A DNA stretch of 64,000 bases from a virus. Location of the stretch: the IMG/VR virus record IMGVR_UViG_3300032050_010539; one strand, written 5' to 3'. The position numbers and the translations under genes were made by a program. Below the pieces are notes generated by a model. It did no database searches. It was not told where the DNA came from and was given only the letters and a program-made list of their open reading frames with translations. Position 1 is the stretch's first letter. The number at the start of each line of letters is the position of its first letter. Shown one piece after another: positions 129 to 21,129 of this stretch.

Positions 129-689
129 TTAATTGTCACAGACTACTCGAAAACCACCATTGTTGCCGCAGAAGTCGCGGCGGAAGAAGAAGGTGCGAAT
201 TACGGAACGGCAGTCATAAGGAGTGTCCCACCAGGAACCGCCCCGCAGACAACTGACATCTTCACACCATTCCCAGACGTTGCCACTCATGTCATAGAGT
301 CCCCAAGCATTAGGTAATTTTTGCCCTACAGGATGGGTTGTCTTCTGAGAATTATCACAATACCAAGCGTAATCTCTTAATTGATGATAATTATCTCCAA
401 AATAATAGTTAGTAGTAGTCCCTGCACGACAGGCATATTCCCATTCCACTTCTGTCGGTAAGCGATAAGTTTTGCCGATTATTTCACTCAATTTCTGACA
501 AAAAACTTGGGCATCGTTCCAACTAACAGTTTCTACTGGATTTTGAGGATTACCTTGAAAATAAGATGGATTAACTCCCATTACTACTTCATATTGTTCC
601 TGAGTTACTGGATATTTACCAATTTTAAAACTACTAATTTCTTGATCTTGACTTGATGGTACCTCTACCATTTCAATTTTAATCATCAT
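129..689 (-). CDS. FGE-sulfatase (SUMF1/C-type lectin fold) protein, DGR target type
   Basis: [49 protein letters not shown]...GFRVVC motifs; C-terminal region rich in NNC codons. Confidence 0.92.
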   Translation of the reverse strand: MMIKIEMVEVPSSQDQEISSFKIGKYPVTQEQYEVVMGVNPSYFQGNPQNPVETVSWNDAQVFCQKLSEIIGKTYRLPTEVEWEYACRAGTTTNYYFGDNYHQLRDYAWYCDNSQKTTHPVGQKLPNAWGLYDMSGNVWEWCEDVSCLRGGSWWDTPYDCRSVIRTFFFRRDFCGNNGGFRVVCDN

Positions 690-744
690 TTTTACTCCTA
701 GTTATGTTTTTACTGACTAATAACTAACTGACGCTAAAAGATAA

Positions 745-1035
745 TCAAAGCAACTTAAATCCTTTTTTTGTACCTCTGTCTGATCCAAATTCTCGCACAG
801 CACCTTTTAGGGATTCTCTTACAGAAGCCCTTGACATTCGAGACTTTTTCCCTAGTTCCCAATTGATTACACTTGCATTTCCACAAGCGTCAACACTTTC
901 AAGACTCTCAAACCAACCGTCGTTGGTATGGGCGTAAGAAACCATTACAGCACCATTAGGAAACAGGGTGCCACTAAATTGATATTCAGTATTGTCAAAG
1001 TCTTTAGCGAGAAAAGTGACTTGTTGAATGATCAT
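745..1035 (-). CDS. hypothetical protein with GTLFPNGAVMVSY motif
   Basis: ORF 745..1068; likely start MIIQQ at 1035; duplicated at window start. Confidence 0.7.
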   Translation of the reverse strand: MIIQQVTFLAKDFDNTEYQFSGTLFPNGAVMVSYAHTNDGWFESLESVDACGNASVINWELGKKSRMSRASVRESLKGAVREFGSDRGTKKGFKLL

Positions 1036-1057
1036 TGTTTTTACTGCTGATAATTGA

Positions 1058-2116
1058 CTAATTGTCACAGACTACCCGAAAACCGTAATCGCTGATGCGT
1101 TCGTAGAGGCTGTAGTTATCGTAGTAGCAGTAAGTGGAACGGCAGAGATCAGGATTGCTGTACCAAGAACCGCCCCGATTCACGCCGTCTTCGCACCACT
1201 CCCAGACATTGCCACTCATATCATACAGTCCCCAAGCATTGGGCTTTTTCTGGCCCACAGGATGAGTTGTCTGCTGAGAATTGTCGTAATACCAAGCGTA
1301 ATCTCCTAACTGATTAGCATCATCACCAAAATAATAGCGAGTGGTTGTCCCTGCACGACAAGCATATTCCCACTCCGCTTCCGTTGGTAGACGATAGGTT
1401 TTGCCAGTTATTTGACTTAATTTCTGACAAAAGGCTTGAGCGTCATCCCAACTAACCTTTTCTACCGGATTTTGTGGATTATTTTTAAACCGAGAGGGAT
1501 TGGTTTCCATTACTGTTTCATATTGCGCCTGAGTAATTGGATATTTCCCAATCGCAAAACTACTGATTTTTTGATCCTGACTTGATGGTATTTTTACCAT
1601 TTCAATTTTAATCATCACTTTTACTCCTAACTCTAATTGATTTTTTAGTCGCTTATTTTCCTGTTGCAGTAGCCAAACTGAGGATTCTAAATCGTGAACC
1701 TTTTGTTTTAAGTTGTCAATCCATGCTTCGTTGTATTCTTTGCTCTGTTCTAATTCTTGATTTTTTTTCTCCAGAATTTCATTTTTTGTTTCTAGTTCCT
1801 CAACTAATTTGCTTAAGTTGTCAGAGTTTTGATCTTCTGGCGTGTACTTGCAATAATCTAAATAGTCCCATAGGTCATAAGGAGAACTAAGAAGCTCCCG
1901 AACTTCTTCAATAAAATCTTCTAGAGCGTCAAAAAGCTTTTGAGTGTCATAATCTGCTAAGTAAACACCTTGTTTTTTGACAGTGAGGTAATCACCGTTA
2001 TCAGTCACTGATAATATCACGTGGCCTCCCTCAAAATATCTTTGGTTAATTTTATTGAGATTGTTTTCGATACGCTTGATAAGCGCCGTTCTTTCGTAAA
2101 AATTAATAGAAGTCAT
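1058..2116 (-). CDS. N-terminal domain + coiled coil + FGE-sulfatase/C-lectin domain, DGR target type
   Basis: heptad-rich residues ~100-165; [38 protein letters not shown]; RBS GAGG upstream. Confidence 0.9.
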
Positions 2117-2182
2117 GTTTTGTTACCTCTTGTGTGTTTGTTTACTTGATCCTGTCTTACGATATTCTCCCAGAAATATCAA

Positions 2183-2383
2183 CTATTTGAGAGAATTATT
2201 TCTGTTAATCCCTTGCTTTTTGATTATCTTAGGATGCTTATCACAGATTAAAGCTATTCTTGTCAGCGGTATGCCTGATAGAGAGTAATCTTGTAACTTA
2301 ACAAGATTTAAGACAGAAGATTTTAAAGTTTTAAAATCTTCTGTTCTAAGAGAGATAATTAAGATCATAAGGTTACAAATCAC
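2183..2383 (-). CDS. hypothetical protein
   Basis: 66-aa ORF with a 4-nt overlap onto the previous stop. Confidence 0.5.
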   Translation of the reverse strand: MICNLMILIISLRTEDFKTLKSSVLNLVKLQDYSLSGIPLTRIALICDKHPKIIKKQGINRNNSLK

Positions 2384-3142
2384 TCTTGAGGTAAATAGAA
2401 AAATCCTTTAATTGCTGGAAGACAATTAAAACTAACAGGCAAAAAAACAACTTTTATACCATCGCAATACCAGCCATCATCATGTAAAAAAGTAAATCTT
2501 TTATCAAGATTAGCACCTTTGGTATAAATACACTTACTTTTGATGTACTCAAGTACATCTTGCGCTTTTTTTATGCAGTCATCAAAAGCTTTTTCTATTT
2601 GATGTGGTTGATATGGTCCGATAATAATTTCTTGACTATCGACCCGGCAACATTCAGCGTAAAACTCCCCTAAGATACCGCTAAGACTAGGATGCAAGTA
2701 GATCGTTTCTTCATTTCTAGTAGCTGTAGCAGGAACGACAGCGACAACAGAATCCGTCCAGGCATCTTTTAAATAACAGCAAGAATCAAACTTAATATTA
2801 TCTGTATCGACAAAACCTTGTTTGTTTAATGCCCATTTTACAGTTTCTTCACAGGGATTACCGTCTTCCCCGATAAACGGAGGTTTTGCGTTCCACATAT
2901 TAACCAAAGATACCGTTTTTGCGCCCAATCTTTTGTATATGTTCATAATCTTTGTTAATGCTAGTGTTAACATAAAACGGGAATAATTTCCCGTTTTGAC
3001 TTAATTGCTTGTTACCAAATGCTGTAAAAGTGATAGCCACCTTTATAACCTCTACGCTGAAATGGGCGTTATTGTTTTTGTAAACATTGCATATCTCTTT
3101 CGTTGTCGGCAACTCTAGAGACAAATCAACTAAAGCCGTCAC
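2380..3142 (-). pseudogene. possibly split hypothetical gene (overlapping ORFs 2900..3142 and 2380..2973)
   Basis: two same-strand ORFs overlap by 74 nt; the upstream frame continues without a start codon to ~3200. Confidence 0.35.
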
Positions 3143-3358
3143 GCTGTAGAGTGTGTCGTGGATGCCACAAGATAAACCTTCCGCAGGAATTATAACTAGC
3201 TATGAAACATAGATAGTGATGTAATCTAGAACGTCAGCCATATTATGACTGTGTTTTGTGTGAATAGCCTTTGCTATAAAACTAGCCACGCATAGTTTTA
3301 GTTAGTGCATGCCTGCCTAGTGCCTGCCTAATCCTGTATGTGTAAATTATAATCAACG

Positions 3359-3835
3359 ATGTCTCTCATGAGCCCACCAATTACTCTAGTAATCCCGGAT
3401 TCGGGTCAGACCAGTTTAATAATAACGGATACGCCCAGCGACCTCATCACCATAGGTGGAGGTAATCTATCAGAGGCTGCCAGTGCTATTGGTATACGCG
3501 ACAAGATAGGTAGTCTTCAGGGAGAACAGCGTCTAAGTGCGTTAGTGCTTAAAGATATTCCTCCTGGATTTCCTGGCCCGCCTGGTCCGCCTCTATTAAT
3601 TAAAGGTAATCTTAATTCTATAGGCGATCTGCCTACTAACCCCTCTATAGGACATGGTTATTTAATTCAAGGTATTCTTTACACTTGGTCGGGTATAGCG
3701 TGGATTAATGGCGGACAACTGCAAGGCCCTATTGGGCTATCCGCTTATCAAGTAGCCCTGGACAATAGTTTTATTGGCACGGAGCAAGAATGGCTCGATA
3801 GCCTAAAACAACAATGGATTGTTACAGACTGGTAA
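3359..3835 (+). CDS. collagen-repeat tail fibre/virion accessory protein
   Basis: PPGFPGPPGPP repeat; GxSAYQVAL...GTEQEWLDSLK motif typical of phage fibre proteins. Confidence 0.7.
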   Translation: MSLMSPPITLVIPDSGQTSLIITDTPSDLITIGGGNLSEAASAIGIRDKIGSLQGEQRLSALVLKDIPPGFPGPPGPPLLIKGNLNSIGDLPTNPSIGHGYLIQGILYTWSGIAWINGGQLQGPIGLSAYQVALDNSFIGTEQEWLDSLKQQWIVTDW

Positions 3836-3839
3836 AAAT

Positions 3840-4418
3840 ATGAGTACAACTTTTAAGCCCTCTAAATTAACTGCAGTCCCATCGCTACCCTGCGAGGGTA
3901 ACGCTGTGTTTTTTGTTGCGCCTCAGGGCAAACCGAACTATATTGAAATATATGTAAGCAATACTTCTGGGACTGCTCTAAAGCGACTACTGACAGACAC
4001 CGATATTCAGTCTTTAATCGATGCTTCAATTTCTGGATTAGCTGGCGAAATGCCGATTGTAGCTAATATAGCAGCTAGAAATGCCCTATCTCCAACTGAG
4101 AATACTCAGGTTCTGGTACTAGACGCAACTGGCGATGCCACTGTGGCAAGCGGCGCAGCCACTTATATCTATCGATTTTCTACAACTTCTTGGATTAAAA
4201 TAAGTGAAGCGGAATCACTCGATCTAATTCTTCAGTGGGCTAATATTCAGGGAAGGCCTATTAGCTCTCCTAGTGCTATCGATACGGCAGTATCTAATAG
4301 CCACGTTCACAATGGGAATTTGAGCCAACTTAATAAAATAGGAGAAAATGCTGACGGACTTTTTACCTATAATAATGCCTTGCCTAAGACTGCATGGGAG
4401 GGAACGATTGCATGGTAG
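3840..4418 (+). CDS. virion/tail-fibre associated protein
   Basis: IVANIAARNAL...VLDATGDATVASGAATYIY and LQWANIQGRP..SHVHN motifs common in phage fibre modules. Confidence 0.65.
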   Translation: MSTTFKPSKLTAVPSLPCEGNAVFFVAPQGKPNYIEIYVSNTSGTALKRLLTDTDIQSLIDASISGLAGEMPIVANIAARNALSPTENTQVLVLDATGDATVASGAATYIYRFSTTSWIKISEAESLDLILQWANIQGRPISSPSAIDTAVSNSHVHNGNLSQLNKIGENADGLFTYNNALPKTAWEGTIAW

Positions 4419-4633
4419 TTTTTCACTCTGAAAAAGTATTAGGAGGCCTCCCCCTTACTTTAACGCCTAATGCCGTTTATTTTGTCAGAGTAGGGAGTGG
4501 AATCATGATTTATGTCGCCGATGCTACGGGAAGCGTGGCTTATCCTATAAATCAGGAGGGTGGGGGCGGCAGCGGCTCTGAAATTACCTCTCTGGCTACT
4601 TACGAGTACCTCCTAGCTATAGGATTAGGATAA
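4412..4633 (+). CDS. small fibre-module protein
   Basis: LPLTLTPNAVYFVRVG resembles the N-terminus of the preceding gene. Confidence 0.55.
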   Translation: MVVFHSEKVLGGLPLTLTPNAVYFVRVGSGIMIYVADATGSVAYPINQEGGGGSGSEITSLATYEYLLAIGLG

Positions 4634-4636
4634 TAA

Positions 4637-4963
4637 ATGGCACTAAATAACGCTACTTTTTCAGGACTGACGACATCCTTTCAGGATGTGTACGTCCCTC
4701 CTAGCGGCGTATCAGTCGTATCTGTCTTCTCAATTCTTTGTTGTAATAGGGCGTCGACGGCAACCGACTTAAATCTGGTTTTAACTAATAGCGAAAACGT
4801 GACTTTGTGCTTCATTAGCTTTACGATACCTATCCCAGTTGGGTCCAGTTTTGTTCCTATTTCTAGCCCTATTATCATCAAGCCGAATCAGAAGTTAAGG
4901 GCTTCAGCTTCTGCCCCTAATGTAATAGATATGTTAATAGGTTGTTCGGAGTTTATGCCATGA
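4637..4963 (+). CDS. small beta-rich virion/fibre-module protein
   Basis: YVPPSG..SILCCN..IPVGSSF..IIIKPNQKLRA pattern of small phage beta-sandwich proteins. Confidence 0.6.
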   Translation: MALNNATFSGLTTSFQDVYVPPSGVSVVSVFSILCCNRASTATDLNLVLTNSENVTLCFISFTIPIPVGSSFVPISSPIIIKPNQKLRASASAPNVIDMLIGCSEFMP

Positions 4964-5709
4964 CACGTGAAGGTGGCTTCATGGGCTCTCAACCCCTTTG
5001 GGATGGAGCCAATAGACCGGGGAATTGGAGTGTTCTTGACGTTTACAATCGACAAAGACGGAATCTTTGGATTCAATCCAGTGATCCTTTTATTAATAAT
5101 GTTGTTTGCGATCTTAGGTTTGAGGGACTAAATAATGGAACCGTGTTTGCTGACAGTGGTCCACTGTTACTACCAGTTTCGCGACTGGGAACCACGGGTG
5201 TAGTAACGAGTACCACTCAATCTAAATATGGGTCTGCTTCTGGCTTATTTCCTGGCACAAACGGGTATTTAAGTGTCACCCATCCCAACCTAGCATTGGG
5301 AACTGGGAATTTTACTATTGAGATGTGGTTATTTGCCGCTACATCTCGCTCTAATAATGGAATTATATCGCTTGGGACAAGTGATAGCATTTTTACTGTT
5401 ATTTTATCTGCTATTAGTAATTACTTAAGAGTGGCGGGTAGTTCCAATATAGCTTCAGTCCCCCTTAATAGTTGGTTCCACCTTGCTTATGTTCGCGAGG
5501 GTACTGGAACTAGTCAAGCAAAATTATATTTAAATGGAACCTTAATCAATCAAGCCATTAATAGCACTAACTATCTTCAAACCTTTTATAATATTGGAGT
5601 ATATTCATCCAGTCTTTGCTGGGGCGGCAATATCGACAATTTTAGAGTGACTAAAGTTGCTAGGTATCTAACAAACTTTAATCCTGAAACCGACACTTAT
5701 ATGGAGTAA
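4960..5709 (+). CDS. LamG/concanavalin-A-like lectin domain receptor-binding (tail fibre) protein
   Basis: QSKYGSASG, GTGNFTIEMW, WFHLAYVR, LYLNG, GNIDNFRVTKVARY. Confidence 0.85.
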   Translation: MTREGGFMGSQPLWDGANRPGNWSVLDVYNRQRRNLWIQSSDPFINNVVCDLRFEGLNNGTVFADSGPLLLPVSRLGTTGVVTSTTQSKYGSASGLFPGTNGYLSVTHPNLALGTGNFTIEMWLFAATSRSNNGIISLGTSDSIFTVILSAISNYLRVAGSSNIASVPLNSWFHLAYVREGTGTSQAKLYLNGTLINQAINSTNYLQTFYNIGVYSSSLCWGGNIDNFRVTKVARYLTNFNPETDTYME

Positions 5710-5711
5710 TT

Positions 5712-6197
5712 ATGATTCTTTATTCTTTACGAGGGCAATACCCTCAACAACTACCAGATAGAATTATTCTCAGTAACGGGTTCACTCGTACTGGGGGAAA
5801 TTACACCGCTGAAGAGATAGCCGATGCTGGCTACCTTCCAGTTGAAGTGCCAGACTATGATCCAACTATCTATCAATTGGGCTGGAATGGGGCCGAGTTT
5901 GTATTAGAACTAATCCCTCCTTCCCTTCCTATTCCTGATTGGGTAGAATTTGCCCGGCTAATGTTAGTAGATGTCGAGTTCAACCAATTCTATCAACAAT
6001 TGGTTCCTTTAAATCCACTACTTGCAGGGAGTCTACAAGTAGCTCTATCTCAAGCAAGTCTGGGACGGCCAGAATCTTTTGCAATGGTTTGGGGCCTGGT
6101 CGCTCCTAACATCGCGCTGGAGCATAAAAGTCAATGGGCTGGGTATGCTCAGATCTGTAATCTACCTAGTGACTTTATTGCTATTCTACTCTCTTAA
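5712..6197 (+). CDS. putative tail-fibre assembly chaperone
   Basis: follows the fibre gene; LPDRI.LSNGFTRT..YTAEEIADAGY..VEVPDYDP..QLGW pattern. Confidence 0.6.
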   Translation: MILYSLRGQYPQQLPDRIILSNGFTRTGGNYTAEEIADAGYLPVEVPDYDPTIYQLGWNGAEFVLELIPPSLPIPDWVEFARLMLVDVEFNQFYQQLVPLNPLLAGSLQVALSQASLGRPESFAMVWGLVAPNIALEHKSQWAGYAQICNLPSDFIAILLS

Positions 6198-6286
6198 GAG
6201 AGTGGTAAAATCTTGCCACTGATTAATTGACTTAGCGTATGGTCCCTCTCTTGAGTATCAGCGAATTATTCTAGAGAGGGATTATA

Positions 6287-6436
6287 TTATTTATTTTTTC
6301 GAGTATTGACAAAATCTTCAAGAGCTTCAATAAACCCATCAAAAAAACTAATTGTATAAACCATAATAAAAGCAACAATTAGTACAAGTATTGTGAGTAC
6401 TACAATAGATAAAATAACATTAAGAATGATGTTCAT
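6287..6436 (-). CDS. small membrane protein (49 aa, MNIILNVILSIVVLTILVLIVAF...)
   Basis: translated by hand; one long hydrophobic segment. Confidence 0.5.
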   Translation of the reverse strand: MNIILNVILSIVVLTILVLIVAFIMVYTISFFDGFIEALEDFVNTRKNK

Positions 6437-6769: not shown

Positions 6770-6827
6770 AGAGAAGCGTACACTGGATTAGGAGACTAGT
6801 AGCGCATTGATACTAACAGCGATATAC

Positions 6828-7209: not shown

Positions 7210-7253
7210 ATGGTTGTATGCTATTATTAGAATAATTACTTTAGGATTCAAAT

Positions 7254-8549: not shown

Positions 8550-8933
8550 TTAAGAATCACGATCAAATAATTCTACAGATATATCGCACATACAATAGTC
8601 CTCCTTATGTGTTACGACAATATCTTCAGAATTAGTCAAAGGGTGATCCCACCCTTTGGGAGTGATTACTTGTAAAGCAATATACTCTTCTATTTCATCC
8701 CAATTAACATCTAAAAACAAGTTTTCTTTAGATATTAATTGACGACCACATCCGTGGTGTTTTACTAAATTAATCACTAAGTCGCATAATTTAGTTGCTC
8801 CTTCTGCATTCTCAGCGTAAGATGCAATGGGAACATTTATACGCATCTTATCGTAATAATTATCGGTTTTTTGCCCTTCACTTAGCCAATAAGCTCGCTG
8901 AATATCTGGGCGATCATTGTCGATGCCGTACAT
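8550..8933 (-). CDS. hypothetical protein (AT-rich insert)
   Basis: 127-aa ORF. Confidence 0.65.
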   Translation of the reverse strand: MYGIDNDRPDIQRAYWLSEGQKTDNYYDKMRINVPIASYAENAEGATKLCDLVINLVKHHGCGRQLISKENLFLDVNWDEIEEYIALQVITPKGWDHPLTNSEDIVVTHKEDYCMCDISVELFDRDS

Positions 8934-9018
8934 ATTGATTGCTTTTCCCCTACTTAAGCTTCAGGGTATCCCTAATAAGGATTAGATAAAGCGCACGCGA
9001 CTACGACTATAGTACATA

Positions 9019-9040
9019 GTTTCAATTCCTAATAGGAGTT
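9019..9040 (-). CRISPR. solitary CRISPR-repeat-like unit (type I-D-like 3' half)
   Basis: minus strand AACTCCT-ATT-AGGA-ATTGAAAC: 4-bp stem followed by the canonical ATTGAAAC handle. Confidence 0.5.
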
Positions 9041-9088
9041 CTTTGTGCGATTAACTCTAATATATCCTGCATTCCTAACCCGTGAGAG

Positions 9089-9310
9089 TTAGATTATGCA
9101 ACTATCCCAATTGTCCCAAATCCAATCATCGAATTTTTTATAAAGCCTCGATTCTGATTCTTGATCAGTTGTATCTAGAAAAGAGCATGAGTATTTTTCC
9201 CAAAATCCAAAGTTTTGATCTTTCATAAAACTTAATGCTTGTTTAAAAGCTTCTTCTTTAGTTTTATGCTTCGAGATGAATTTGTTGTTCCAAAAAAACT
9301 GAATTGTCAT
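9089..9310 (-). CDS. hypothetical protein
   Basis: 73-aa ORF with AGGAG RBS. Confidence 0.65.
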   Translation of the reverse strand: MTIQFFWNNKFISKHKTKEEAFKQALSFMKDQNFGFWEKYSCSFLDTTDQESESRLYKKFDDWIWDNWDSCII

Positions 9311-9388
9311 GATTTCTCCTGTTTTTCTTCTACTTAAGCTTTAGGGTATCTCTAATAGGGGGGCCCCTCGTGATATACTACGCCCTAA

Positions 9389-9679
9389 TTACTGTAGTAG
9401 TTTATTCGTATACTTTGTTGGCACTATTAGTGTTGTGGGGCCATTGGTAAACGTTAACTTATGTACTTTGATGTCAAATCCATTATCGTGTTCTGTATAT
9501 TGTAGCTTCAGACCTTTAAACAGGCGTCTCATCCGCTGAATACTGCGGGCCTCATTATTAGGCCACGTTACTATATCAATCTCTACGCTGATGATGTGCT
9601 TCGTGAAGCACGCGTACCTATTAATGTTGATATGCTCGTCTGGCGATGGATATAAAACGTAAGAGGTTAATACTTTCAT
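9389..9679 (-). CDS. hypothetical protein
   Basis: 96-aa ORF, AAGGAG RBS, paralogue at 8342. Confidence 0.7.
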   Translation of the reverse strand: MKVLTSYVLYPSPDEHININRYACFTKHIISVEIDIVTWPNNEARSIQRMRRLFKGLKLQYTEHDNGFDIKVHKLTFTNGPTTLIVPTKYTNKLLQ

Positions 9680-9733
9680 AGCTCTCCTTAGTATTATGGT
9701 ATTCCTAATAGGGGGGCCTATATTAGTTCTGAA

Positions 9734-9806
9734 TGCAGGATAGCGGAATCGAACCGCTCTAAGCCGTCTTATGAGGACGGTGCCTCCACCTATCGGCCAA
9801 TCCTGC
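9734..9806 (-). tRNA. tRNA with CAT anticodon (elongator Met or Ile2)
   Basis: GCAGGAT acceptor stem; CCGTC-CTCATAA-GACGG anticodon arm; GGTTCGATTCC T-arm; no encoded CCA. Confidence 0.92.
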
Positions 9807-10045
9807 TTGGGGTGCAGCCCCGGGGGCCACGTTATCGGCCCTAACTGAGGGGGCCGCGTTATATCTAGTATGCCGTTACTTACCCTTTCTTATCAATCTA
9901 TCTGTATTCTTGTCCCACGCCGCTACATAGAAGTGATGTAACAGCCTGTGAAGCAGAATTACAAAGAAGATTAATCCACCAATCCGCGAAAGCAATAAAA
10001 TCACTATCTTCCTCCTGAGCTTAATTCTTGATAAGGTTTACTGTA

Positions 10046-10064
10046 TGCAGGATAGTGGAGTCGG
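10046..10064 (-). pseudogene. 3' remnant of the CAT tRNA
   Basis: TGCAGGATAGTGGAGTCG resembles the tRNA 3' ends at 9734 and 10860, and shares CTGTAT context with the 10860 copy. Confidence 0.5.
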
Positions 10065-10106
10065 TTACACTATTCCACTTATCCTTATTATGGCGCGGGC
10101 CTTGTG

Positions 10107-10310
10107 TTATAGCCTGGATGTAGAGTAGTGTAACATTCTACTACATGTATCACTGGCGGGCCCTCCATTAGACATGATCGATATCCATACCAACGCTATG
10201 ACGCATATTAACGCGACAAGGCCCCACTTAACGCGGGGCCCTACTCTAGGAATTAGATACATCAGGAATACTATGTACACGATAAAGAACGCTATTACTG
10301 TTATTGACAT
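10107..10310 (-). CDS. small two-TM membrane protein
   Basis: two hydrophobic helices; AAGGA RBS. Confidence 0.65.
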   Translation of the reverse strand: MSITVIAFFIVYIVFLMYLIPRVGPRVKWGLVALICVIALVWISIMSNGGPASDTCSRMLHYSTSRL

Positions 10311-10859
10311 GCTTGTATATCCTTAATAATTGAGTGGCTACACACTCTACTACATGTATCGCTGGCGGCCCCTCCAGCAGGTATGATTGATATCATTAGA
10401 TACATTAGAATCACTATGAACACGGTAAGGGTCACATATAAAGCTAATACTGTTTTTGACATGCCTATATCTCCTTAATAATTGAGTGGCTACACACTCT
10501 TGTCTATCCCTCTGCCTAGGTTTCGCTCGCATTTGATAGCTTAATATATGTTTAAATATAGCTAGAATATGGCGATATTTGCCGTATTTTCAACGCTGTA
10601 TTAAAAACCCCATTTTTATTGTTTAAATTGTTACATATTCTAACTGTATGTTATGGGCATATTTATTTGAGGTGAGAGAAGCTGTGGTTAATTGATAAGT
10701 ATAACTTATCGATATACAATACTATACTCTATACTAAGTAGCGCTAGCATAGACTACAATCAATAGTTAATAGGTTTGCCTCAGGGAGTAGAATGGCACT
10801 TTGATAGTGACTCATAGGTTTAACTTATATAACGTTGTGGGTTTTGCTCTAACGCTGTA

Positions 10860-10932
10860 TGCAGAATAGCGGAATCGAACCACTTTGAGCCGTCTTATGA
10901 GGACGGTGCCTATACCAATCGGCCAATTCTGC
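10860..10932 (-). tRNA. second tRNA with CAT anticodon
   Basis: GCAGAAT acceptor stem, identical anticodon arm CCGTCCTCATAAGACGG, GGTTCGATTCC. Confidence 0.92.
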
Positions 10933-11391
10933 TTATTGGGAAACCGTAGCTATGGTCTCATAGTCTATTATTCAGTAGGTGCTTCTATGGGGGGCCCCGC
11001 TCGTGCTAAGGCCACTACTACGGGTTAGGGGCCCGCGGGTTTATCGCCCCTCATGTTGAGTTATTACTTGCTCGAGGGCCATGGATAGTGCGGGCCCGCA
11101 GTCTAACTCTATACGGTAGCTTATCACGCTATTGACCTTAATCTTATCGTTCTCGAACCAATCACAACTGCGCTAGGCTCGAACTCACCGTATGCTTCTA
11201 CACTGGTATCCATTACGTAGCTCAGCGCTACGCTTCCACAGTGAAATCAGTCTGGCCCGCGCATAGCAGCTGTGCGTCTTCTACACGATAGTAGAAGGCC
11301 CTGTTACTGTAATTAGCTGGGCCCACAGTAAGTCCTACACAGTACTGAGTTAATGTGGCGCGCCTTGATATCTATGTTGTTTATGCTCAGG

Positions 11392-14518: not shown

Positions 14519-14915
14519 ATGATTTGTTTAGTCTAGTACTGCTTGCCCGCGTGGCTCTCTCTCTAGCCGCATTTATTATCTTATTGTCTAGTTCTCTGTA
14601 AAACTCGTGGTCTCCTAGGGCCATGAAGTAGCCCATCGCTTCTACTAACTCGGGCCTCTCTCGGAAGTATTCTACTCTTCCTCCTCCCTCTAGATACCTC
14701 CCCAGTAATATCGCGATCTGCACCTCCTCATCATTGGCCTCTATCCATAGGCTCTTGAACGCTGTTGTACATATATTAATATCGTGGCCCATCTCTCGGG
14801 CCTTCGTTAATGTGTATCTCTCTAGTAAGGCGTATCGCATTAGAATGGGGAGATGGGCCGGGCCATACTCCTCTAACCATTCTGCTATTACCTCTAGTGC
14901 TGTATTTAGTTTCAA
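14508..14915 (-). CDS. hypothetical protein
   Basis: 135-aa ORF. Confidence 0.65.
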   Translation of the reverse strand: MKLNTALEVIAEWLEEYGPAHLPILMRYALLERYTLTKAREMGHDINICTTAFKSLWIEANDEEVQIAILLGRYLEGGGRVEYFRERPELVEAMGYFMALGDHEFYRELDNKIINAARERATRASSTRLNKSYAN

Positions 14916-15017
14916 TGTATTACGCGCCCTCTGGTATGAGCGGGGTTGGCCCGCTAGTAGCCGCGGGCCGTGTAATTTATAGCTAGGCTACTCTAGCTCT
15001 CTATTAACACTGGTGAG

Positions 15018-15452
15018 TTACATGGTCACCTTTTGGAAGAGCACATTTATATCTCCCTCGTGAATGAGGGTGTCATCACTACTACAGGCCTCATAATAAA
15101 CGGAGTCAATGTCGTCCTCCATGATTATGATATTATCCTCAGCCGTGGGTTCTTTGATTTTACATTCAATCACCATCGTGATGAATGGGTTATCATTTCC
15201 ATACATCTTGTAGCCATCAGCTACGCTCTTGGCTATATAATTGCTATGCGGGAACACTAGGTTGACAATCATACCAATGGCCAGCTCACTGATATCAATA
15301 GAACGGCCGTCTGCTAACTCCAAGTAATAGTCTTGTGCTCCAACGCAAGTTCCAGTTAATACGGCGTTGCCGCTGCGGTTAGTCGTAAATGTAACTTGTT
15401 TGGTTTCACTCGAACGGGTTAATTTGATTCTTAGTTTCATTCTTGGTTTCAT
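15018..15452 (-). CDS. hypothetical protein (possible OB-fold), tandem paralogue
   Basis: KQVTFT..GNAVLTGTCVGA.DY.L.LA.G.S shared with 15550..16071. Confidence 0.75.
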   Translation of the reverse strand: MKPRMKLRIKLTRSSETKQVTFTTNRSGNAVLTGTCVGAQDYYLELADGRSIDISELAIGMIVNLVFPHSNYIAKSVADGYKMYGNDNPFITMVIECKIKEPTAEDNIIIMEDDIDSVYYEACSSDDTLIHEGDINVLFQKVTM

Positions 15453-15549
15453 GGCAGTCCTGCTTAATTATTTGATGGGGTGACCCTCTACCTAGTAGAG
15501 GGTCACTCTTCCCCTCGGCGAGCCGTGTAATTTATACTCTAGCTCTCTA

Positions 15550-16071
15550 TTAGTGTCTCTCTTGGAGAGTTACCTTACGGTTGAAACAGTTGGGAGCACC
15601 TGAAGTAGGAACACTTGCTTCACGCGCTGCTCCACTTGCTCCCTTAGTTCCTGCCCCCTTCTGGAAGAGCATATCTAACTCATCCTCGGTCACGAGGGTA
15701 TCATCATTCATCGCCTCATAATTAACTGATGTGATGTCTGCCATCATGATTATGAGGTTACCTTCAGCCGTAGGCTTCTTGGTCTTACATTCAATCACCA
15801 TCGTGATAAATGGGCTACCGTTTCCATATTCCTCATAGGCCGAGGCTATACTCTCGACTGCACTCTGAGCATCGCGCGAAGAGAATACTACATTGACAGT
15901 TAGCCCGACGGCTAGATCACTAGCGTCGACAGAACCACCGTTTGCTAGCTTCAAATGATAGTCAGAGGCCCCCACACAGGTGCCGGTTAGCACCGCGTTG
16001 CCCTTTTCGGTGAAGGTAAAGGTGACCTGCTTGTTTGATGTTTTACGAGTTAATTTGATCTTGAGTTTCAT
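15550..16071 (-). CDS. hypothetical protein (possible OB-fold), tandem paralogue
   Basis: GAGG RBS; paralogue of the previous gene. Confidence 0.75.
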   Translation of the reverse strand: MKLKIKLTRKTSNKQVTFTFTEKGNAVLTGTCVGASDYHLKLANGGSVDASDLAVGLTVNVVFSSRDAQSAVESIASAYEEYGNGSPFITMVIECKTKKPTAEGNLIIMMADITSVNYEAMNDDTLVTEDELDMLFQKGAGTKGASGAAREASVPTSGAPNCFNRKVTLQERH

Positions 16072-16290
16072 AATACACCTCGGTTAGTTGGTTAATTGAT
16101 AAGGCGGGACCTGGGGTCTCTTAATGATGCGGCCACTCTTCCCCGCGGCGGGCTCCGTAGTATGGCCATACTTGACGGCTGGTCCCCCCCTGCGGGGGCC
16201 TTCTTCATCTCTAGACATGCCTTGGATACGAGAACTACTAGTCCTCTATATCGCGGCTTAATGGCTAGACTATATAGATGAATGGGGTAG

Positions 16291-16533
16291 CTAGACATTT
16301 CCTACCTCCCCTATCTTCCAGTAGCTCTTCCCGCCTACTCGACTCTCTACACCATTAGGTGATAGTATGATACGCGCATTGCTCCGCTTGGAGCTCGATA
16401 GATAGAGCGCGCGGGCCAGGAATGCTACGATTACTAGTATTGCTACACTATGTGTGATGACCAGCACTGCCATCATGAACATGAACAGTGATAGATACGC
16501 TACGTGACGCGCATCTAACTCTATAGGCTTCAT
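16291..16533 (-). CDS. small membrane protein
   Basis: hydrophobic helical hairpin; GGAG RBS. Confidence 0.6.
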   Translation of the reverse strand: MKPIELDARHVAYLSLFMFMMAVLVITHSVAILVIVAFLARALYLSSSKRSNARIILSPNGVESRVGGKSYWKIGEVGNV

Positions 16534-16634
16534 ATAGCTCTCCGGCGTATGTAGTTAATGGATGGGTACACCCAGTGCCGCCGATTAGGCCGCAGTCGAT
16601 GTCCCCTAGTGCCCCACTGGGGCCTAGTACCACA

Positions 16635-17678
16635 CTAGGAGACCCATTGGCTTATATAACTGACGACTATTAGTATGGGGAAGGGTAGCATCTTATCTAT
16701 CCCTGATATCTCCTCTACCATATACATCAGTCCTAGACATACGGCCCCCGGTAGGAATAGAATACTAACGTGAGTCGATGCCATCAACACGACCAGCGCG
16801 GCCGCCGTTACACCTAGATTGATAAGGCGAGTGGGGCCGGCGTGTAACCAGCGTTGCCACATAGGGCTCCTTATCATCCAGATGGTCAGCCAATAGGCTG
16901 ATAAGAATAGGGGTGTCAGTAACACTACTACGCCGACGAAGGCGGGCCAATTCAACTGATCTACATCCGTTAGGGCCAGATAGGAACTCATGGCATCTCG
17001 CCCACTACTATTACCTAACATGACTAGTCCCAATGATATGCCCCGCACAACGGCCTCGAGGTAGGATTCAGTCTTACCATCAGGGGCGGCTGCAGCTACA
17101 GGTAACCCAATAGCGAAGAATGGTCCTAGTGACATAGCGATTCCCAGCGCATTGCTGGTCTCACAGTCCTCAGTCTTACGTCTAGCGGGGCGTATTAGGC
17201 TGGCCATAACGTAGCCCCCCATACCTAGGATGGTAGTAGCGTGGGGCTGACTATGTAGCAGCCATAGGAAGATAGCCGTTATAACGGCTAGACCTATTAG
17301 CCTAGGCCGGCCCCAACACTGCACTAATATGAAGATGGCCATCATTAATGGCGTTATCCACATATGAGATACACCGAGGTATTGGTCCATCACTATTATG
17401 CCTAGACTGGCTACTATACCACCAATTAGGCTGGTGATGCGTATTAACAGCGAAGCCGATGCGTCGTACCCGCTAGTGGCGGTAACTACCCTCATACCAG
17501 TAAAGGCCGGGCTACTCATGCGGGCCTCACTGGTTATAGTTCCAATTATCACTATAGCTAATACGCCCATTGCGTTATCGCCGCTAATAAGCGGCATAAG
17601 CGCCATCAACAGAATCTCGATACTCAGATATGGTATCAGAGATACTATGAGGGCCAGTGCCCCCAATACGATTGTCAT
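16635..17678 (-). CDS. polytopic integral membrane protein
   Basis: about 10 hydrophobic segments in 347 aa. Confidence 0.8.
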   Translation of the reverse strand: MTIVLGALALIVSLIPYLSIEILLMALMPLISGDNAMGVLAIVIIGTITSEARMSSPAFTGMRVVTATSGYDASASLLIRITSLIGGIVASLGIIVMDQYLGVSHMWITPLMMAIFILVQCWGRPRLIGLAVITAIFLWLLHSQPHATTILGMGGYVMASLIRPARRKTEDCETSNALGIAMSLGPFFAIGLPVAAAAPDGKTESYLEAVVRGISLGLVMLGNSSGRDAMSSYLALTDVDQLNWPAFVGVVVLLTPLFLSAYWLTIWMIRSPMWQRWLHAGPTRLINLGVTAAALVVLMASTHVSILFLPGAVCLGLMYMVEEISGIDKMLPFPILIVVSYISQWVS

Positions 17679-17688
17679 GTGACTTACC

Positions 17689-17991
17689 CTAAGGTAATGT
17701 TTTAAAGGTAACGTTAATTAACGTGCCGTTACTAACGTTACCCGTTACTTCTATAAACCTACCGCTGCGTATTCTCCTAGCCAGGATAAGTAAACTGCAC
17801 CTGCTAGTGCCCGCATCCTCGTATAGGAGGACGTAGGCATGATTGGGTAGGGTAGGGTTAGAGTATGTAGTGCTCTTAACCCAGGCTCTGGTTGTCACGT
17901 GGGCGCCATTATAGCGCCTTATATCACATAGCTCCACTGGTATGGGCGGGGGCCTTCTCCCTAGTATAAGGGCGAGTAGTGTATCTAGCAC
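17689..17991 (-). CDS. hypothetical protein (OB-fold-like)
   Basis: YNGAHVTTRAWV...GRFIEVTGNV. Confidence 0.55.
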   Translation of the reverse strand: MLDTLLALILGRRPPPIPVELCDIRRYNGAHVTTRAWVKSTTYSNPTLPNHAYVLLYEDAGTSRCSLLILARRIRSGRFIEVTGNVSNGTLINVTFKTLP

Positions 17992-18550
17992 GTTTTATGG
18001 CCTCATTGAACTCGGTCTCGTTAACGAAGGTCATACTATACACTACACCTTGGTCCCATTCGATGATGGCGTATACGACACCGCCGTGTCGTAACGCATA
18101 ATTGATGGCCCGCACGTCGAGCGCATCGACGCGTAGGCTGAGGTTACCTAACAGATAGTAACCAGAATCAGGTTCGGTCTCTTGTAAGGGCTCCTCTATT
18201 CTGAGGAACCGCTTCTTAAGCCTAGGGTTGCTATCACTATCATAGTCTAGATAAGTACGGTTATAGGTGCCCTTAAACTCACCATTCACTACTCTCCCTT
18301 GTATATTTAACCGCTCGCCTATCTCAGGCGGGGGCCCATCTAAGGGTATATATACATAACAGCCTCTCCTATTAGAGGCAAGTAGGGGATCGGTGGATGT
18401 GATTACCTTAACTCTATCTACTACCTTGTCATTATTAGCGCTACATATGGAAGGCGAGGCCTTCGATAAGTTAGATCCTACGCCAGCGAATGCAGCTACG
18501 CCGAGTGCCATTATTGCACATATTATTAAGGCACTTAAGGGTTTTCTTCC
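17924..18550 (-). CDS. secreted/membrane-anchored hypothetical protein
   Basis: N-terminal signal-like hydrophobic segment. Confidence 0.6.
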   Translation of the reverse strand, partial: GRKPLSALIICAIMALGVAAFAGVGSNLSKASPSICSANNDKVVDRVKVITSTDPLLASNRRGCYVYIPLDGPPPEIGERLNIQGRVVNGEFKGTYNRTYLDYDSDSNPRLKKRFLRIEEPLQETEPDSGYYLLGNLSLRVDALDVRAINYALRHGGVVYAIIEWDQGVVYSMTFVNETEFNEAIKRARYTTRPYTREKAPAHTSGAM

Positions 18551-18720
18551 CATCTGCTGCACTCCTTAACAGAATATACTTCTTTATCCCATACCCAAGG
18601 AGGTACCTTCTCCAATTCGGACCGAACTACTGGAGTTCCCCAATAGTAATGCCCGTCAGAGAATTGACCCATACATGGATCTTGGTCATTACGACGGGCG
18701 CATGATAGGCAGAGGCTCAT
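18535..18720 (-). CDS. small Cys-rich protein
   Basis: CLSC...C...C; GGAG RBS. Confidence 0.55.
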   Translation of the reverse strand: MSLCLSCARRNDQDPCMGQFSDGHYYWGTPVVRSELEKVPPWVWDKEVYSVKECSRWEENP

Positions 18721-18734
18721 TTTTTACTCCCTAA

Positions 18735-19052
18735 TTACTTCTTTAATTGGTTAAAAACAGCAATTTCTTCTTTTATACTTTCCTCTGTTCTTTGTGCAAG
18801 AACTTCTATTGCTTGAGGCAATAACTCAGTAATACACTTACAGGCCTTGTCATATCTTTTAACACAAATCCAGTGGCCATAGTAACAGTTTTCAGGGTCT
18901 GTTACATATTTGACTGCAAAAAATAACCACTGGCAATTAGTGTAACTAATTTCTGCAACGAAACCGTACGAGAAATTATAAAAATCACACTCTCTTTTAG
19001 AGGCACCGAATACTTTTAAGACCTGGTTCTGAAACTCTTCAAATGATAGCAT
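18735..19052 (-). CDS. hypothetical protein, tandem paralogue
   Basis: MLSFEEFQNQVLKVF and upstream DNA identical to the next gene. Confidence 0.8.
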   Translation of the reverse strand: MLSFEEFQNQVLKVFGASKRECDFYNFSYGFVAEISYTNCQWLFFAVKYVTDPENCYYGHWICVKRYDKACKCITELLPQAIEVLAQRTEESIKEEIAVFNQLKK

Positions 19053-19103
19053 AACATCTCCTGTTGATAGATTAAATCTTGATTACTGATAGCTGATAAC
19101 CAA

Positions 19104-19421
19104 TTACTCTTCTATTTTTTTAAAGATAGCATTTTCTTCCTTGATGCTTTCTTCTGTTTTTTGTGCAACAACTTTTATTGCTTGCATCAAAGAATCTGAA
19201 ATGTTTCTGTAAGCTTTGTCGTATTCTTTTATAACGATCCAACGACCATAATTACAGTTTTCAGGGTTTGTTACATATCTGACTCTAAAGAATAAATAAT
19301 GGCCATTGGTGTAATTAATTAATGCCGAGAAATAATAAGAAGAATCCCAAAACTCACATTCTTCTTTGGTGCATTTAAATACTTTTAAGACCTGGTTCTG
19401 AAACTCTTCAAATGATAGCAT
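19104..19421 (-). CDS. hypothetical protein, tandem paralogue
   Basis: duplicate of the previous gene. Confidence 0.8.
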   Translation of the reverse strand: MLSFEEFQNQVLKVFKCTKEECEFWDSSYYFSALINYTNGHYLFFRVRYVTNPENCNYGRWIVIKEYDKAYRNISDSLMQAIKVVAQKTEESIKEENAIFKKIEE

Positions 19422-19487
19422 AACATCTCCTGTTGATAGATTAAATCTTGATTACTGATAACTGATTACTGATTGATTAATCACAAA

Positions 19488-19766
19488 CTATTCGAAAACC
19501 AATGCACCCAGAACCTCTGTCTCGGTCTTGGTTAAATTTATACAGACAATACTCTGGACCGGTGGCCCAATAACCGCACCGTAAACTCCCGCAATTGATC
19601 CACCTAGGGCTGCACCTCCTACCGTCACCACCATCAAGCGATCAGCTTTATCCCAAAATCGAGGGGAATCAGCGCCCTCGCGATCAAGGGGGATCCCCCC
19701 GGTATGACAACTATTTCTAAGGTGATGGCTGAAGGATTGCTTCCGAAACTCTTTAAATGGCAGCAT
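19488..19766 (-). CDS. chimeric small protein with glycine-zipper TM segment
   Basis: MLPFKEFRKQ start resembles its neighbours; VGGAALGGSIAGVYGAVIG. Confidence 0.45.
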   Translation of the reverse strand: MLPFKEFRKQSFSHHLRNSCHTGGIPLDREGADSPRFWDKADRLMVVTVGGAALGGSIAGVYGAVIGPPVQSIVCINLTKTETEVLGALVFE

Positions 19767-19792
19767 GATCTCTATTTAATATTGAAACTAAT

Positions 19793-20167
19793 CTAGGATA
19801 CTTGTAAAAACAGACAACCTAGAATTACGCCTGTCTTTTTATCCCGAACTAGCGCGCCGGGGGCTAAACAGTCCACGCGACCTATCTTAGCGGCCGCGGC
19901 GGCCGCTAACCCAGATACAATGTAATAAACCCCTTCCTGGGGTTCTGGTAGTCCTTCGATCTCTCCGTAAGTGACGGACTCGATGGCAATACCATCGATC
20001 TCCCCCGCAGGGAAGTTGACCATTGAAACTCGTGCGAGAATCCCCGACGGAGGTATCTCTCTCAGAATTTCAACAGTTTCAGCAAGAAACTGTCTTCTAT
20101 TGTCCTGTTCGACGCCCTCTCTAGAGACGAGGGTGATAGAGTGAGGGGTTGCGTTGATTAATGTCAT
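19793..20167 (-). CDS. conserved phage protein with N-x-T-P-H motif; possible Crn4-like ring nuclease
   Basis: INATPH, IPPSG..ARV, YGEIEGLPEP..GVYYIVS, R.DCLAPG..VRD...ILGC; function is from recollection only. Confidence 0.5.
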   Translation of the reverse strand: MTLINATPHSITLVSREGVEQDNRRQFLAETVEILREIPPSGILARVSMVNFPAGEIDGIAIESVTYGEIEGLPEPQEGVYYIVSGLAAAAAAKIGRVDCLAPGALVRDKKTGVILGCLFLQVS

Positions 20168-20268
20168 TTGTTCTCTCTGTAGTACGGTATATACGTCCTC
20201 TACTAGTAGAAGGGCTCAGCCGGCCTTATCAAAGGTCGGCTGATTACTATTCCATCAAGGAAAAAGGG

Positions 20269-21129
20269 TTAGGGAGTTCTTCTGAATACGCAGACCACCC
20301 GAAAACCGCCATCGTTGCCGCAGACGTCGCGGCGGTTGCTGCTGCCGCGAATCGCGGAACGGCAGCTATCAGGATTGAAGCCCCAGGAACCGCCCCGCAG
20401 AGAAGAATGATTATCATCCTCATTTTCTATCCAAGCACTGCCATCCGTCGGCGCACCATCATAATTATCATGCCAAGTATCGGCGCACCATTTCCAGACA
20501 TTGCCATGCATATCGCACAGTCCGAAGGCATTGGGGGGAAATTGTCCCACGGGAGTCGTTTCTTCTCGATATTCTCCCTTCGGTTCTCCAGCGTAGGTAT
20601 AGCTGGCACGGTAGTTAGCCAATTCCCCCGTAATGGTTTCCCCAAAGTGAAATGGGGGGGTGGTTCCAGCACGACAAGCGTATTCCCATTCCGCTTCACT
20701 CGGTAGTCGGTATTCCCTTCCCGTCAGTTTCGATAATCTCGCACAAAATTCAACGGCATCGTACCAGTTGACTTGTTCTACGGGGCGGCGATCACTATCG
20801 GGACGGTCTTTAAAATGGGCCGGGTTGAGATTAAGGTCTTGTTTAACTTTTAAATCTGTGCGAGAGGCAACCTCTTTCCACTGAGCCTGGGTGATGGGGT
20901 ATTTACCCATGAAAAAGGTGGAGACAGTAACCTCATGTTGAGGGCGTTCATCATCGTAACTATCTTTCTCATTTGGCGATGAACCCATCAGGAAAGTTCC
21001 CCCCGGGATGGCAACCATTTCTAAGGTGATGCCATTGCCCAAATCTTCCCCGAAGGGTTGTTCTTTAAACTGTCTTCTATTCTGTTCGACGCCCTGTCTA
21101 GATATTATTGTGTGTGGTATAGCGTTCAT
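20269..21129 (-). CDS. FGE-sulfatase/C-lectin-fold protein, DGR target type
   Basis: [57 protein letters not shown]; likely start MNAIPH at 21129 with AAGGA RBS. Confidence 0.92.
   Translation of the reverse strand: MNAIPHTIISRQGVEQNRRQFKEQPFGEDLGNGITLEMVAIPGGTFLMGSSPNEKDSYDDERPQHEVTVSTFFMGKYPITQAQWKEVASRTDLKVKQDLNLNPAHFKDRPDSDRRPVEQVNWYDAVEFCARLSKLTGREYRLPSEAEWEYACRAGTTPPFHFGETITGELANYRASYTYAGEPKGEYREETTPVGQFPPNAFGLCDMHGNVWKWCADTWHDNYDGAPTDGSAWIENEDDNHSSLRGGSWGFNPDSCRSAIRGSSNRRDVCGNDGGFRVVCVFRRTP

Follow-up and report, generated by a model that had tools for sequence, protein, structure and literature searches.

The window (the whole stretch of DNA that was analyzed, 64,000 nucleotides of IMG/VR record IMGVR_UViG_3300032050_010539) derives from a Ma-LMM01-type Microcystis myophage (Fukuivirus) and contains three lectin-type genes, all on the minus strand. 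Gene A (positions 129 to 689) is an ORF whose translation of 186 aa consists solely of a short-form FGE-sulfatase/C-type-lectin domain (PF03781, E = 6e-37; phrog_18508, E = 2e-65); in a quick tree, read qualitatively, its clade is made up almost entirely of phage sequences. Gene B (1058 to 2116) encodes 352 aa, with a coiled-coil-like N-terminal region ahead of a short-form lectin domain (PF03781, E = 4e-39, residues 180 to 349). Gene C (20269 to 21129) encodes a long-form lectin protein (PF03781, E = 3e-62) that is orthologous to Ma-LMM01 gp062, as judged from synteny and alignment, and its relatives in the PDB include PvdO (E = 2e-44) and the DGR protein TvpA (2y3c; E = 6e-20). The listed ORF of gene C reaches a GTG at 21264, but the ATG at 21129, which the initial annotation had taken as the start, is the more plausible of the two. 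All three ORFs are open, their PF03781 matches stop 3 to 7 residues short of the C terminus, and Microcystis proteins are 72 to 76% identical in amino acid sequence to the phage lectin-type proteins. The protein kinase label carried in GenBank and PHROG (gp037, gp062, and phrog_18508) was rejected: Pfam recognizes FGE-sulfatase alone in genes A, B, and C, and the label appears to be inherited from cyanobacterial kinase-lectin fusions. Downstream of gene B lies a partner ORF (745 to 1068, minus strand; 107 aa) that has no match in Pfam or PHROG searches and whose first 127 nt are repeated exactly downstream of gene A (positions 1 to 127 equal 938 to 1064, 127/127).

Each lectin-type gene ends in a variable region (VR), all again on the minus strand. 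VR_A (137 to 248) is the part of gene A that is homologous to a template (TR), spanning CTGCGGGG to GGTTTTCG and a further 11 nt, and VR_C (20289 to 20400) is the TR-homologous part of gene C. From CTGCGGGGCGGTTCCTGG to GGTTTTCG (148 to 248 in gene A, 20300 to 20400 in gene C), a gapless alignment of the two covers 98 nt and contains 21 differences, 18 of which are in codon positions 1 and 2, much as the initial annotation had described, and 16 of which fall on adenine sites of the host TR considered below (hypergeometric P = 3e-7). VR_B (1077 to 1180), with 26 codons on a TAC-type scaffold, carries the same anchors at 1077 to 1177 (101 nt, one codon more than in genes A and C). A degenerate VR/TR pattern matches the window at 148 to 245 and 20300 to 20397 only, i.e., at VR_A and VR_C (shuffled sequences, 0 matches), and similarity between the paralogs, which are otherwise ~40% identical, jumps exactly at the TR boundaries. 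The claim that the window holds three DGR-type VRs on C-lectin domains is thus borne out by the PF03781 matches, the TvpA homology, and the adenine footprint, which show genes A, B, and C, at the level of sequence, to encode predicted C-type-lectin (FGE-sulfatase) binders whose C-terminal VRs bear the marks of adenine mutagenesis. Likewise, the earlier suggestion that gene B depends on a different template agrees with its 26-codon scaffold, which resembles TAC-type TRs, and with the failure to find a cognate TR for VR_B.

Neither an RT nor a template had been noticed in the window, and directed searches returned the same answer: as tblastn queries, two RTs from Microcystis DGRs and an Avd gave a best E of 1.6, tblastn with the Avd of the host plasmid p1FD4 gave E values of at least 2.5, and the degenerate pattern found no TR within the window. 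The same holds across the phage group. Five complete Fukuivirus genomes lack any match to RVT_1 or Avd (PF05635) even at E ≤ 1, no RT was found in the nearest IMG/VR record, and a TR search found none in 2.9 million IMG/VR contigs and only VR-level matches (77 to 81% identity) in 50,697 phage records. In the genomes searched, therefore, no RT, TR, or Avd of a complete phage-encoded cassette (BPP-1 type) was detected.

A TR of nearly exactly the form predicted in the initial annotation, which had proposed such a search, does lie beside an RT in a host genome. Plasmid p1FD4 of Microcystis aeruginosa FD4 (genome G017) carries the cognate TR adjoining intact RT and Avd genes, next to a MoxR/TIR conflict system, and its two VPs have VRs with 14 to 16 adenine and 0 non-adenine mismatches to the TR. 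Host lectin VPs are regarded as conflict-system sensors in studies that also supply the criterion for calling trans targets (PMC10907252, PMC7159879). Relative to the p1FD4 TR, VR_C has 16 mismatches, 15 at TR adenines and 1 elsewhere (94%; P = 3e-9), and VR_A has 23, 17 at adenines and 6 elsewhere (74%; P = 2e-7), the latter short of the >80% of mismatches on TR adenines that the rule for DGR targets requires (PMC7517822). Mismatches away from adenines had been named in advance as evidence against the initial reading; in both regions, most mismatches lie at adenines instead. The VRs of three other Fukuivirus contigs (L124, L125, and L128) depart from the TR at 12 to 13 adenines and at no other site (100%), and in several phage VRs none of the 67 non-adenine sites departs from the TR, whereas identity to the best host gene over the neighboring 150 nt is only 88 to 93%. 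The 5′ boundary of the TR is also the start of the alignment between genes A and C; in VR_A, TR homology begins exactly at CTGCGGGG, and the 5′ limit of VR_C coincides with that of the TR.

RT homologs are present in 6/17 Microcystis species genomes, and the exact p1FD4-type TR was seen in only 1/17. A scan of metagenome contigs returned two contigs only, both with a neighboring TR type. In a collection of genome contigs, an exact scan for the central motif of the TR returned 0, although that motif occurs in the FD4 TR; this collection and the one holding the FD4 genome evidently differ. The TRs of two further Microcystis genomes (G008 and G009) were rejected as templates, being of a different type with 24 codons and non-adenine mismatches, as was a guessed TR form, AAN AAN AAN after TGG, which misses the real TR (beginning GGC) in five Microcystis genomes. 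CRISPR-spacer-like matches to positions 22000 to 41999 of the window, sought in five DGR-bearing Microcystis genomes, numbered zero, which is uninformative. Six IMG/VR contigs were left out of the evidence on the phage group: L110 and L112, which look like host DNA, and L103, L104, L105, and L111, which are not Fukuivirus.

Comparison of orthologous VRs indicates that they have changed within phage genomes. Contigs L124 and L125, both 92 to 94% identical to the window over 9 to 10 kb, differ from one another at 11 of the 28 TR-adenine sites but at 0 of the 70 other VR sites and 0 of the 150 positions of the upstream flank (Fisher 5e-12), and these 11 changes fall in 8 codons; given identical local flanks and differences at adenine sites, the VRs were altered in place. 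Between Ma-LMM01 and MaMV-CH02, 15/28 adenine sites, 7/70 other sites, and 9/150 flanking positions differ (a similar ungapped count for the flanks of the window and the L124 group is invalid owing to an indel). As read from these alignments, orthologous phage VRs are shown to have been rewritten at TR-adenine sites, with the surrounding phage DNA unchanged.

Stasis is seen as well. VR_C is identical in contigs from three metagenomes, one of which has 25 substitutions in adjacent DNA, although the material consists of Logan contigs, which abundant host paralogs break up across gene C and in which minor variants are invisible. Six cultured isolates of related phages share a single VR_C allele, different from that of the window. 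VR_B is nearly identical in three phage contigs (L106, L109, and L114), and the changes specific to the window are at non-adenine-type positions; VR_B thus appears frozen, and change in the VRs is apparently episodic. The initial view that captured host targets may still be diversified in trans is supported in part: adenine-restricted change inside phage genomes is seen only between lineages, where the sequences fit either host cDNA or gene conversion, and with VR_C constant across three metagenomes, ongoing diversification in this phage is at most conjectural.

The 3′ end of gene C has a history of its own. Its host-type tail (20259 to 20288, minus strand) consists of the final codons with the stop and CCCTTTTTCC. 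This tail is similar to what follows host VRs on their 3′ side, down to ~13 nt that are present in host VRs and missing from the TR, and no other Fukuivirus ortholog has it; homology of the window to its closest relatives breaks at 20288. Since TR cDNA could not supply these bases, at least this piece was acquired by DNA recombination. Beyond the VR, homology to the TR extends over ~35 nt in all host VRs examined and over ~19 nt in every phage VR but that of gene C in the window (31/35 nt), such that the targeting signal of phage VRs, which keep only 19 nt, may be incomplete. Mosaicism reaches into the VRs themselves. The VRs of L124 and L125 have derived 3′ codons in common but diverge in the middle, and genes A and C of the window have in common a 3′ patch that includes one non-adenine change; both are mosaics, unlike what simple 3′-anchored full-length retrohoming predicts. 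The VR of the MaMV-DC group appears to combine two TR types in one chimera. Long-form genes of hosts and phages interleave in the quick tree, and which host paralog matches (at 88 to 94%) depends on the 150-nt segment compared.

Such patterns are what would be expected if the diversity were made in host genes and reached the phages by gene conversion without retrohoming, that is, by short-patch recombination with host paralogs, coinfecting phages, or paralogs in the same genome. The central patch in which L124 and L125 differ, the 3′ patch common to genes A and C, the chimera-like VR of the MaMV-DC group, the host-VR-specific tail with its breakpoint at 20288, and the interleaved long-form genes with their segment-wise host matches all fit this explanation, but no donor was identified: among 21 sampled host VRs, none shares adenine-site states with a phage VR above background (maximum, 9, in the same tail as host-host pairs). 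Conversion would also require both crossovers to fall within identical stretches of ~15 to 20 nt, since the flanks remain phage-like (0/150 between L124 and L125), and we consider it possible but doubtful.

It is improbable that the VRs are frozen relics, captured already diversified and not rewritten since, with their differences reflecting separate captures and drift. This reading suits gene B, whose VR is conserved in four phage genomes with drift at non-adenine positions, and could accommodate the six non-adenine mismatches of VR_A and the two VR_C alleles, one constant in three metagenomes and the other in six isolates, but it does not suit the family as a whole. Same-locus orthologs with identical local flanks differ at TR-adenine sites only, and several phage VRs fit the TR at its 67 non-adenine sites even though the neighboring 150 nt have diverged from the best host gene to 88 to 93% identity; for the orthologs of gene C, the comparison of L124 with L125 already appears to contradict it. 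Point mutation with diversifying selection on binding-site codons, and no DGR involved, is barely credible: the variable codons do sit where the lectin fold binds its ligand, a place at which selection could concentrate changes, but the changes coincide with the adenines of an independent host TR (P about 1e-9), similarity between paralogs otherwise ~40% identical rises sharply at the TR boundaries, and 11 changes in 8 codons separate sequences with identical flanks. A DGR of the phage's own, with RT and TR located outside the 64-kb window, is very improbable; the genome of this particular phage was searched within that window only, but its five complete relatives lack RVT_1 and Avd, and the TR is absent from the IMG/VR contigs and from all phage records searched.

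We therefore favor, with a probability of about 0.5, the reading that genes A, B, and C are orphan phage DGR targets that a host DGR acting in trans rewrites from time to time, where the rewriting step is what we infer. Under this reading, the phage would infect a Microcystis cell possessing a matching DGR, and mutagenized cDNA of the host TR would occasionally replace a phage VR, wholly or in part, guided by the shared ends CTGCGGGGCGGTTCCTGG and GGTTTTCGGGTAGTCTGCG. With a matching DGR probably missing from most hosts, rewriting would be episodic, and between rewritings VRs would stay fixed, like VR_C, or decay, in part for VR_A and completely for VR_B. The products would be early-expressed intracellular binders, acting either as mimics or decoys of the DGR-diversified lectin sensors of the host or as adaptable binders of variable host proteins. 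The fuller proposition, that a virulent phage hypermutates its own early lectin binders with the RT, Avd, and template RNA of its host (cross-genome retrohoming), possibly turning the diversifier against host sensors, is tentative, and we hold it to be somewhat short of an even chance.

DGRs are known from two settings: phages, where a self-contained cassette retargets the tail fibers, and cells, where the sensors of a single genome are diversified. The orphan targets described here correspond to neither. BPP-1, a Bordetella phage with the Mtd protein, and the Bacteroides hankyphage (PMC6199706) each encode the full set of RT, TR, and Avd, by which a tail-fiber receptor binder is diversified; Fukuiviruses, unlike these, have no machinery, and their gene C ortholog is early and nonstructural. 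TvpA of Treponema denticola is homologous to gene C by sequence but is a surface lipoprotein encoded beside its own DGR. Closer are the remote (trans) targets of DGRs in multicellular bacteria, cyanobacteria among them, which also bear a C-terminal VR on an FGE-sulfatase/C-type-lectin domain and are host proteins in MoxR/vWA/TIR conflict systems (Vallota-Eastman 2020, PMC7517822; Dore 2024, PMC10907252). As in the phages, a distant TR is matched at nearly all non-adenine sites, and several paralogous targets have one scaffold; however, described remote targets reside in the same genome as the DGR, whereas here the target is in a virulent phage and the TR and RT are on a host plasmid, and most phage copies retain the 3′ homology only in part, in contrast to every host target examined. 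With a near-perfect non-adenine match to a TR in another genome, the phage VRs seemingly act like remote targets while standing outside the same-genome definition.

With respect to function, gp062, the Ma-LMM01 ortholog of gene C, is an early gene, as validated by qRT-PCR (PMC5780444), which argues that the gene C product is not a tail fiber and fits the initial proposal of a non-fiber, putatively intracellular binder. The published account of the early genes of Ma-LMM01 gives them no homologs in databases (PMC5780444), and our literature search found no paper linking Ma-LMM01 or MaMV phages to DGRs. Like host-derived mimics and decoys of other cyanophages, the phage lectins are homologs of host genes and early expressed, such that they may have a decoy or counterdefense role. 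An entire genus of phages that control Microcystis blooms contains 2 to 4 target-type genes and no machinery, with VRs that fit a host-plasmid template base for base at non-adenine sites. If host machinery is responsible, hypermutation crosses the boundary between host and virus, and a phage can exploit a defense-associated diversifier of its host. For gp062 itself, the analysis identifies the fold and family and proposes a role open to testing, in place of its annotation as a kinase.

The first 22,000 nt of the window (1-22000) match, by megablast, only Ma-LMM01-type Microcystis myophages of the genus Fukuivirus (MaMV-CH01/02, DL01/02, DH01, DC, and Ma-LMM01; 83 to 87% identity over 62 to 67% of the query). 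Within the window, tblastn finds only three copies of the FGE-sulfatase gene, all on the minus strand: gene A (129..689), gene B (1058..2116), and gene C (20269..21264 with a GTG start, or to 21129 with an ATG start), each with FGE-sulfatase (PF03781) as its sole Pfam domain; the five complete Fukuivirus genomes carry 2 to 4 such genes each. Genes A and C lack an effector domain, no fibre domain was detected, and the N-terminal addition of gene B is coiled-coil-like on visual inspection only. GenBank and PHROGs label A, B, C, Ma-LMM01 gp037/gp062, and phrog_18508 as “kinase” or “serine/threonine protein kinase,” where the FGE-sulfatase lectin domain alone is present; the label was probably inherited from cyanobacterial kinase-lectin fusions.

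Positions 1-127, downstream of gene A, are identical (127/127) to positions 938-1064, downstream of gene B, and the lectin bodies of A and B are ~85% identical, with the variable regions (VRs) the most divergent portion. The array of lectin-plus-partner cassettes probably extends left beyond the window. Gene C shares an N-terminal GVEQ.NRRQF motif with the downstream gene 19793..20167 (window 20960-21130 versus 20060-20170), and its lectin domain seems to have been attached to the duplicated start of a phage gene. Positions 19052-20288, comprising three small ORFs and a host-type gene C tail, have no counterpart in the nearest Fukuivirus contigs (L107, L124, L125, and L128), where the gene C frame stays open beyond GTCTGCG and gains a longer C-terminal extension, for a protein of 360-363 aa.

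The initial annotation described VRs of the diversity-generating retroelement (DGR) type in all three genes, and this description is borne out: the stretch from CTGCGGGGCGGTTCCTGG to GGTTTTCG aligns without gaps between A and C, and gene B has the same anchors plus 3 nt, the additional codon claimed for it. Of the 98 aligned positions, 21 distinguish A from C, and 18 of those lie at codon positions 1-2; outside the stretch their proteins are ~40% identical, and similarity jumps at its edge. A degenerate pattern of VR and template repeat (TR) has two matches in the window and none in shuffles; the shared A/C variable stretch is real and far above chance. Also as claimed, the window is without reverse transcriptase (RT) or template: tblastn with DGR RTs from two Microcystis genomes and an accessory protein (Avd) returned no RT or Avd (best E=1.6). 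In the five complete Fukuivirus genomes, RVT_1 and the Avd family were both unmatched, even at E≤1.

On the host side, 6 of 17 species-representative Microcystis genomes encode homologs of the Microcystis DGR RT P0004, with several TR types among the adjoining sequences. The predicted TR beside an RT was found in M. aeruginosa FD4, on plasmid p1FD4 (NZ_CP046974.1, 43.6 kb; contig 2 of G017), and its length and scaffold are those of VR_A and VR_C. Annotated features of the plasmid comprise a 1239-aa SAV_2336-N/lectin protein, Avd, an IS5 insertion, RT, TR, and a second FGE-family protein, and MoxR ATPase and TIR genes neighbor the DGR cassette. Mismatches between the TR and the two p1FD4 VRs (14 in one, 16 in the other) are all at adenines, the pattern that TR-templated adenine mutagenesis leaves behind. 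Host TR-VR homology begins at CTGCGGGG, the exact start of the window A/C alignment, and extends ~35 nt past GGTTTTCG. The 3′ half of the TR has no exact match among 2.9 million IMG/VR contigs, and blastn of the TR against 50,697 phage records matches only the nine Fukuivirus records, at VR-level identity (77 to 81%).

In the main p1FD4 cassette, an ISMae4 copy separates avd from RT, and positions 8834-11319 of the plasmid hold a second FGE-family gene and a second avd gene with no adjoining RT. Plasmid p1 of M. aeruginosa NIES-2481 has a TAC-type TR in an unannotated stretch (37201-37395), with no RT annotation within 5 kb, and an FGE gene carrying a p1FD4-type VR. An identical p1FD4-type VR prefix, which looks like a frozen, conserved host VR, occurs at G005:C31:13486, G008:C1:3811563, and G009:C153:148, in three different Microcystis species genomes without a p1FD4-type TR, and also in L024.

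Measured against the p1FD4 TR, mismatches fall mainly at adenines, as the initial annotation anticipated: 15 of 16 in VR_C (hypergeometric P = 3e-9) and 17 of 23 in VR_A (P = 2e-7). The sole non-adenine change in VR_C (C to T, position 76) is also present in VR_A, as are the next codons, TGC GGC AAC; either the true TR allele differs there or a 3′ patch was swapped between VRs. VR_B has a scaffold like that of TAC-type TRs from other strains, in keeping with the different template proposed for gene B, but it contains one more codon and departs from those TRs at several non-adenine positions. Phage contigs L106, L109, and L114 carry almost the same VR_B, whose window-specific changes are not adenine-type. 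We read VR_B as frozen, VR_A as partly decayed, and VR_C as recently written.

An IMG/VR scan yielded 27 contigs for comparison. Five of these (L107, L124, L125, L128, and L129) are pieces of Fukuivirus genomes, with 92 to 99% of their length covered by the window, and most of the five are 92 to 94% identical to it over 4 to 10 kb (L129, 82 to 88%). Between L124 and L125, differences occur at 11 of 28 TR-adenine sites, versus 0 of 70 other VR sites and 0 of 150 upstream flanking positions (Fisher 5e-12); between Ma-LMM01 and MaMV-CH02, the counts are 15/28, 7/70, and 9/150. None of the 67 non-adenine sites of the p1FD4 TR is mismatched in L124, L125, or L128, and over the 150 nt upstream these contigs reach just 88% identity with the best host gene sampled. 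Adenine-only change, unchanged flanks, and complete non-adenine matching together indicate, from sequence comparison, that replacement confined to the VR and to adenine sites took place within phage DNA. Such rewriting is episodic: the L124 and L129 VRs are one base apart, with wider flanks 86% identical, and one VR_C allele is common to six Chinese isolates. Diversification in trans by the host, as initially suggested, is favored by this adenine-restricted turnover between lineages but not by the window VR_C, which is unchanged in contigs (contigs only) from three metagenomes of different studies, one of them bearing 25 substitutions across the neighboring 330 nt. Two “viral” IMG/VR contigs, L110 and L112, bear host-type VR tails, and L112 upstream of its VR is 98 to 100% identical to a Microcystis metagenome contig; both probably come from the host or some other element, not from Fukuivirus.

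Host TR cDNA may have rewritten phage VRs by retrohoming in trans, or phage VRs may have been exchanged as DNA through gene conversion. The perfect match to the host TR at non-adenine sites, the coincidence of VR and TR boundaries, and a search among host VRs that identified no donor all favor cDNA, and trans DGR action has been accepted on like evidence, but within one genome (PMC10907252). Against cDNA and for conversion, the L124 and L125 VRs are mosaics, with derived codons in common at the 3′ end and differences in the middle, although this central-patch pattern would, as speculation, fit annealing-type integration of end-trimmed single-stranded cDNA. Likewise, the window C tail (20259-20288) is host-VR-type and not encodable by TR cDNA, and homology to the closest relatives stops exactly at 20288; of the roughly 35 nt of 3′ homology present in all host VRs examined, every phage VR other than that of window C retains just 19 nt. 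Conversion is further favored by the MaMV-DC allele, which joins a G008-type TR 5′ scaffold to a p1FD4-type 3′ scaffold, and by the interleaving of long-form host and phage genes in a quick tree. In that tree, the short-form family (A and B) is almost phage-only, the exception being the variable protein (VP) of the G008 DGR. The gene C VR common to the six Chinese isolates (including MaMV-DC and CH02) looks chimeric, its 5′ half on the TGT CGT TCT GCC scaffold of the G008-type TR and its 3′ half of p1FD4 type in scaffold and length.

What is solid is the combination of orphan phage DGR targets, a cognate host plasmid DGR, and VR turnover that, from one phage lineage to another, is limited to adenines. 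The initial interpretation is supported in part: host cDNA may be what rewrites these targets, and diversification may be under way in the window phage. Our literature search found Ma-LMM01/MaMV phages nowhere connected to DGRs, lectin, or FGE domains, and no account of a phage-borne target whose cognate TR is carried by a host.

The gene C ortholog in Ma-LMM01, gp062, lies in gp054-gp063, the early “host-takeover” cluster, and was itself validated by qRT-PCR; gp037-gp041, within which the short-form lectin gene falls, form a separate expression cluster (PMC5780444). Host lectin VPs have been proposed as invader-binding sensors or neutralizers in MoxR-vWA ternary conflict systems (PMC7159879, PMC10907252). 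Given early gp062 expression, the sensor role proposed for host VPs, and the lack of effector or fibre domains, a role for the phage lectins as putative intracellular binders or decoys is plausible. The early genes of Ma-LMM01 were stated to be without database homologs (PMC5780444); contrary to that statement, gp062 clearly has them.
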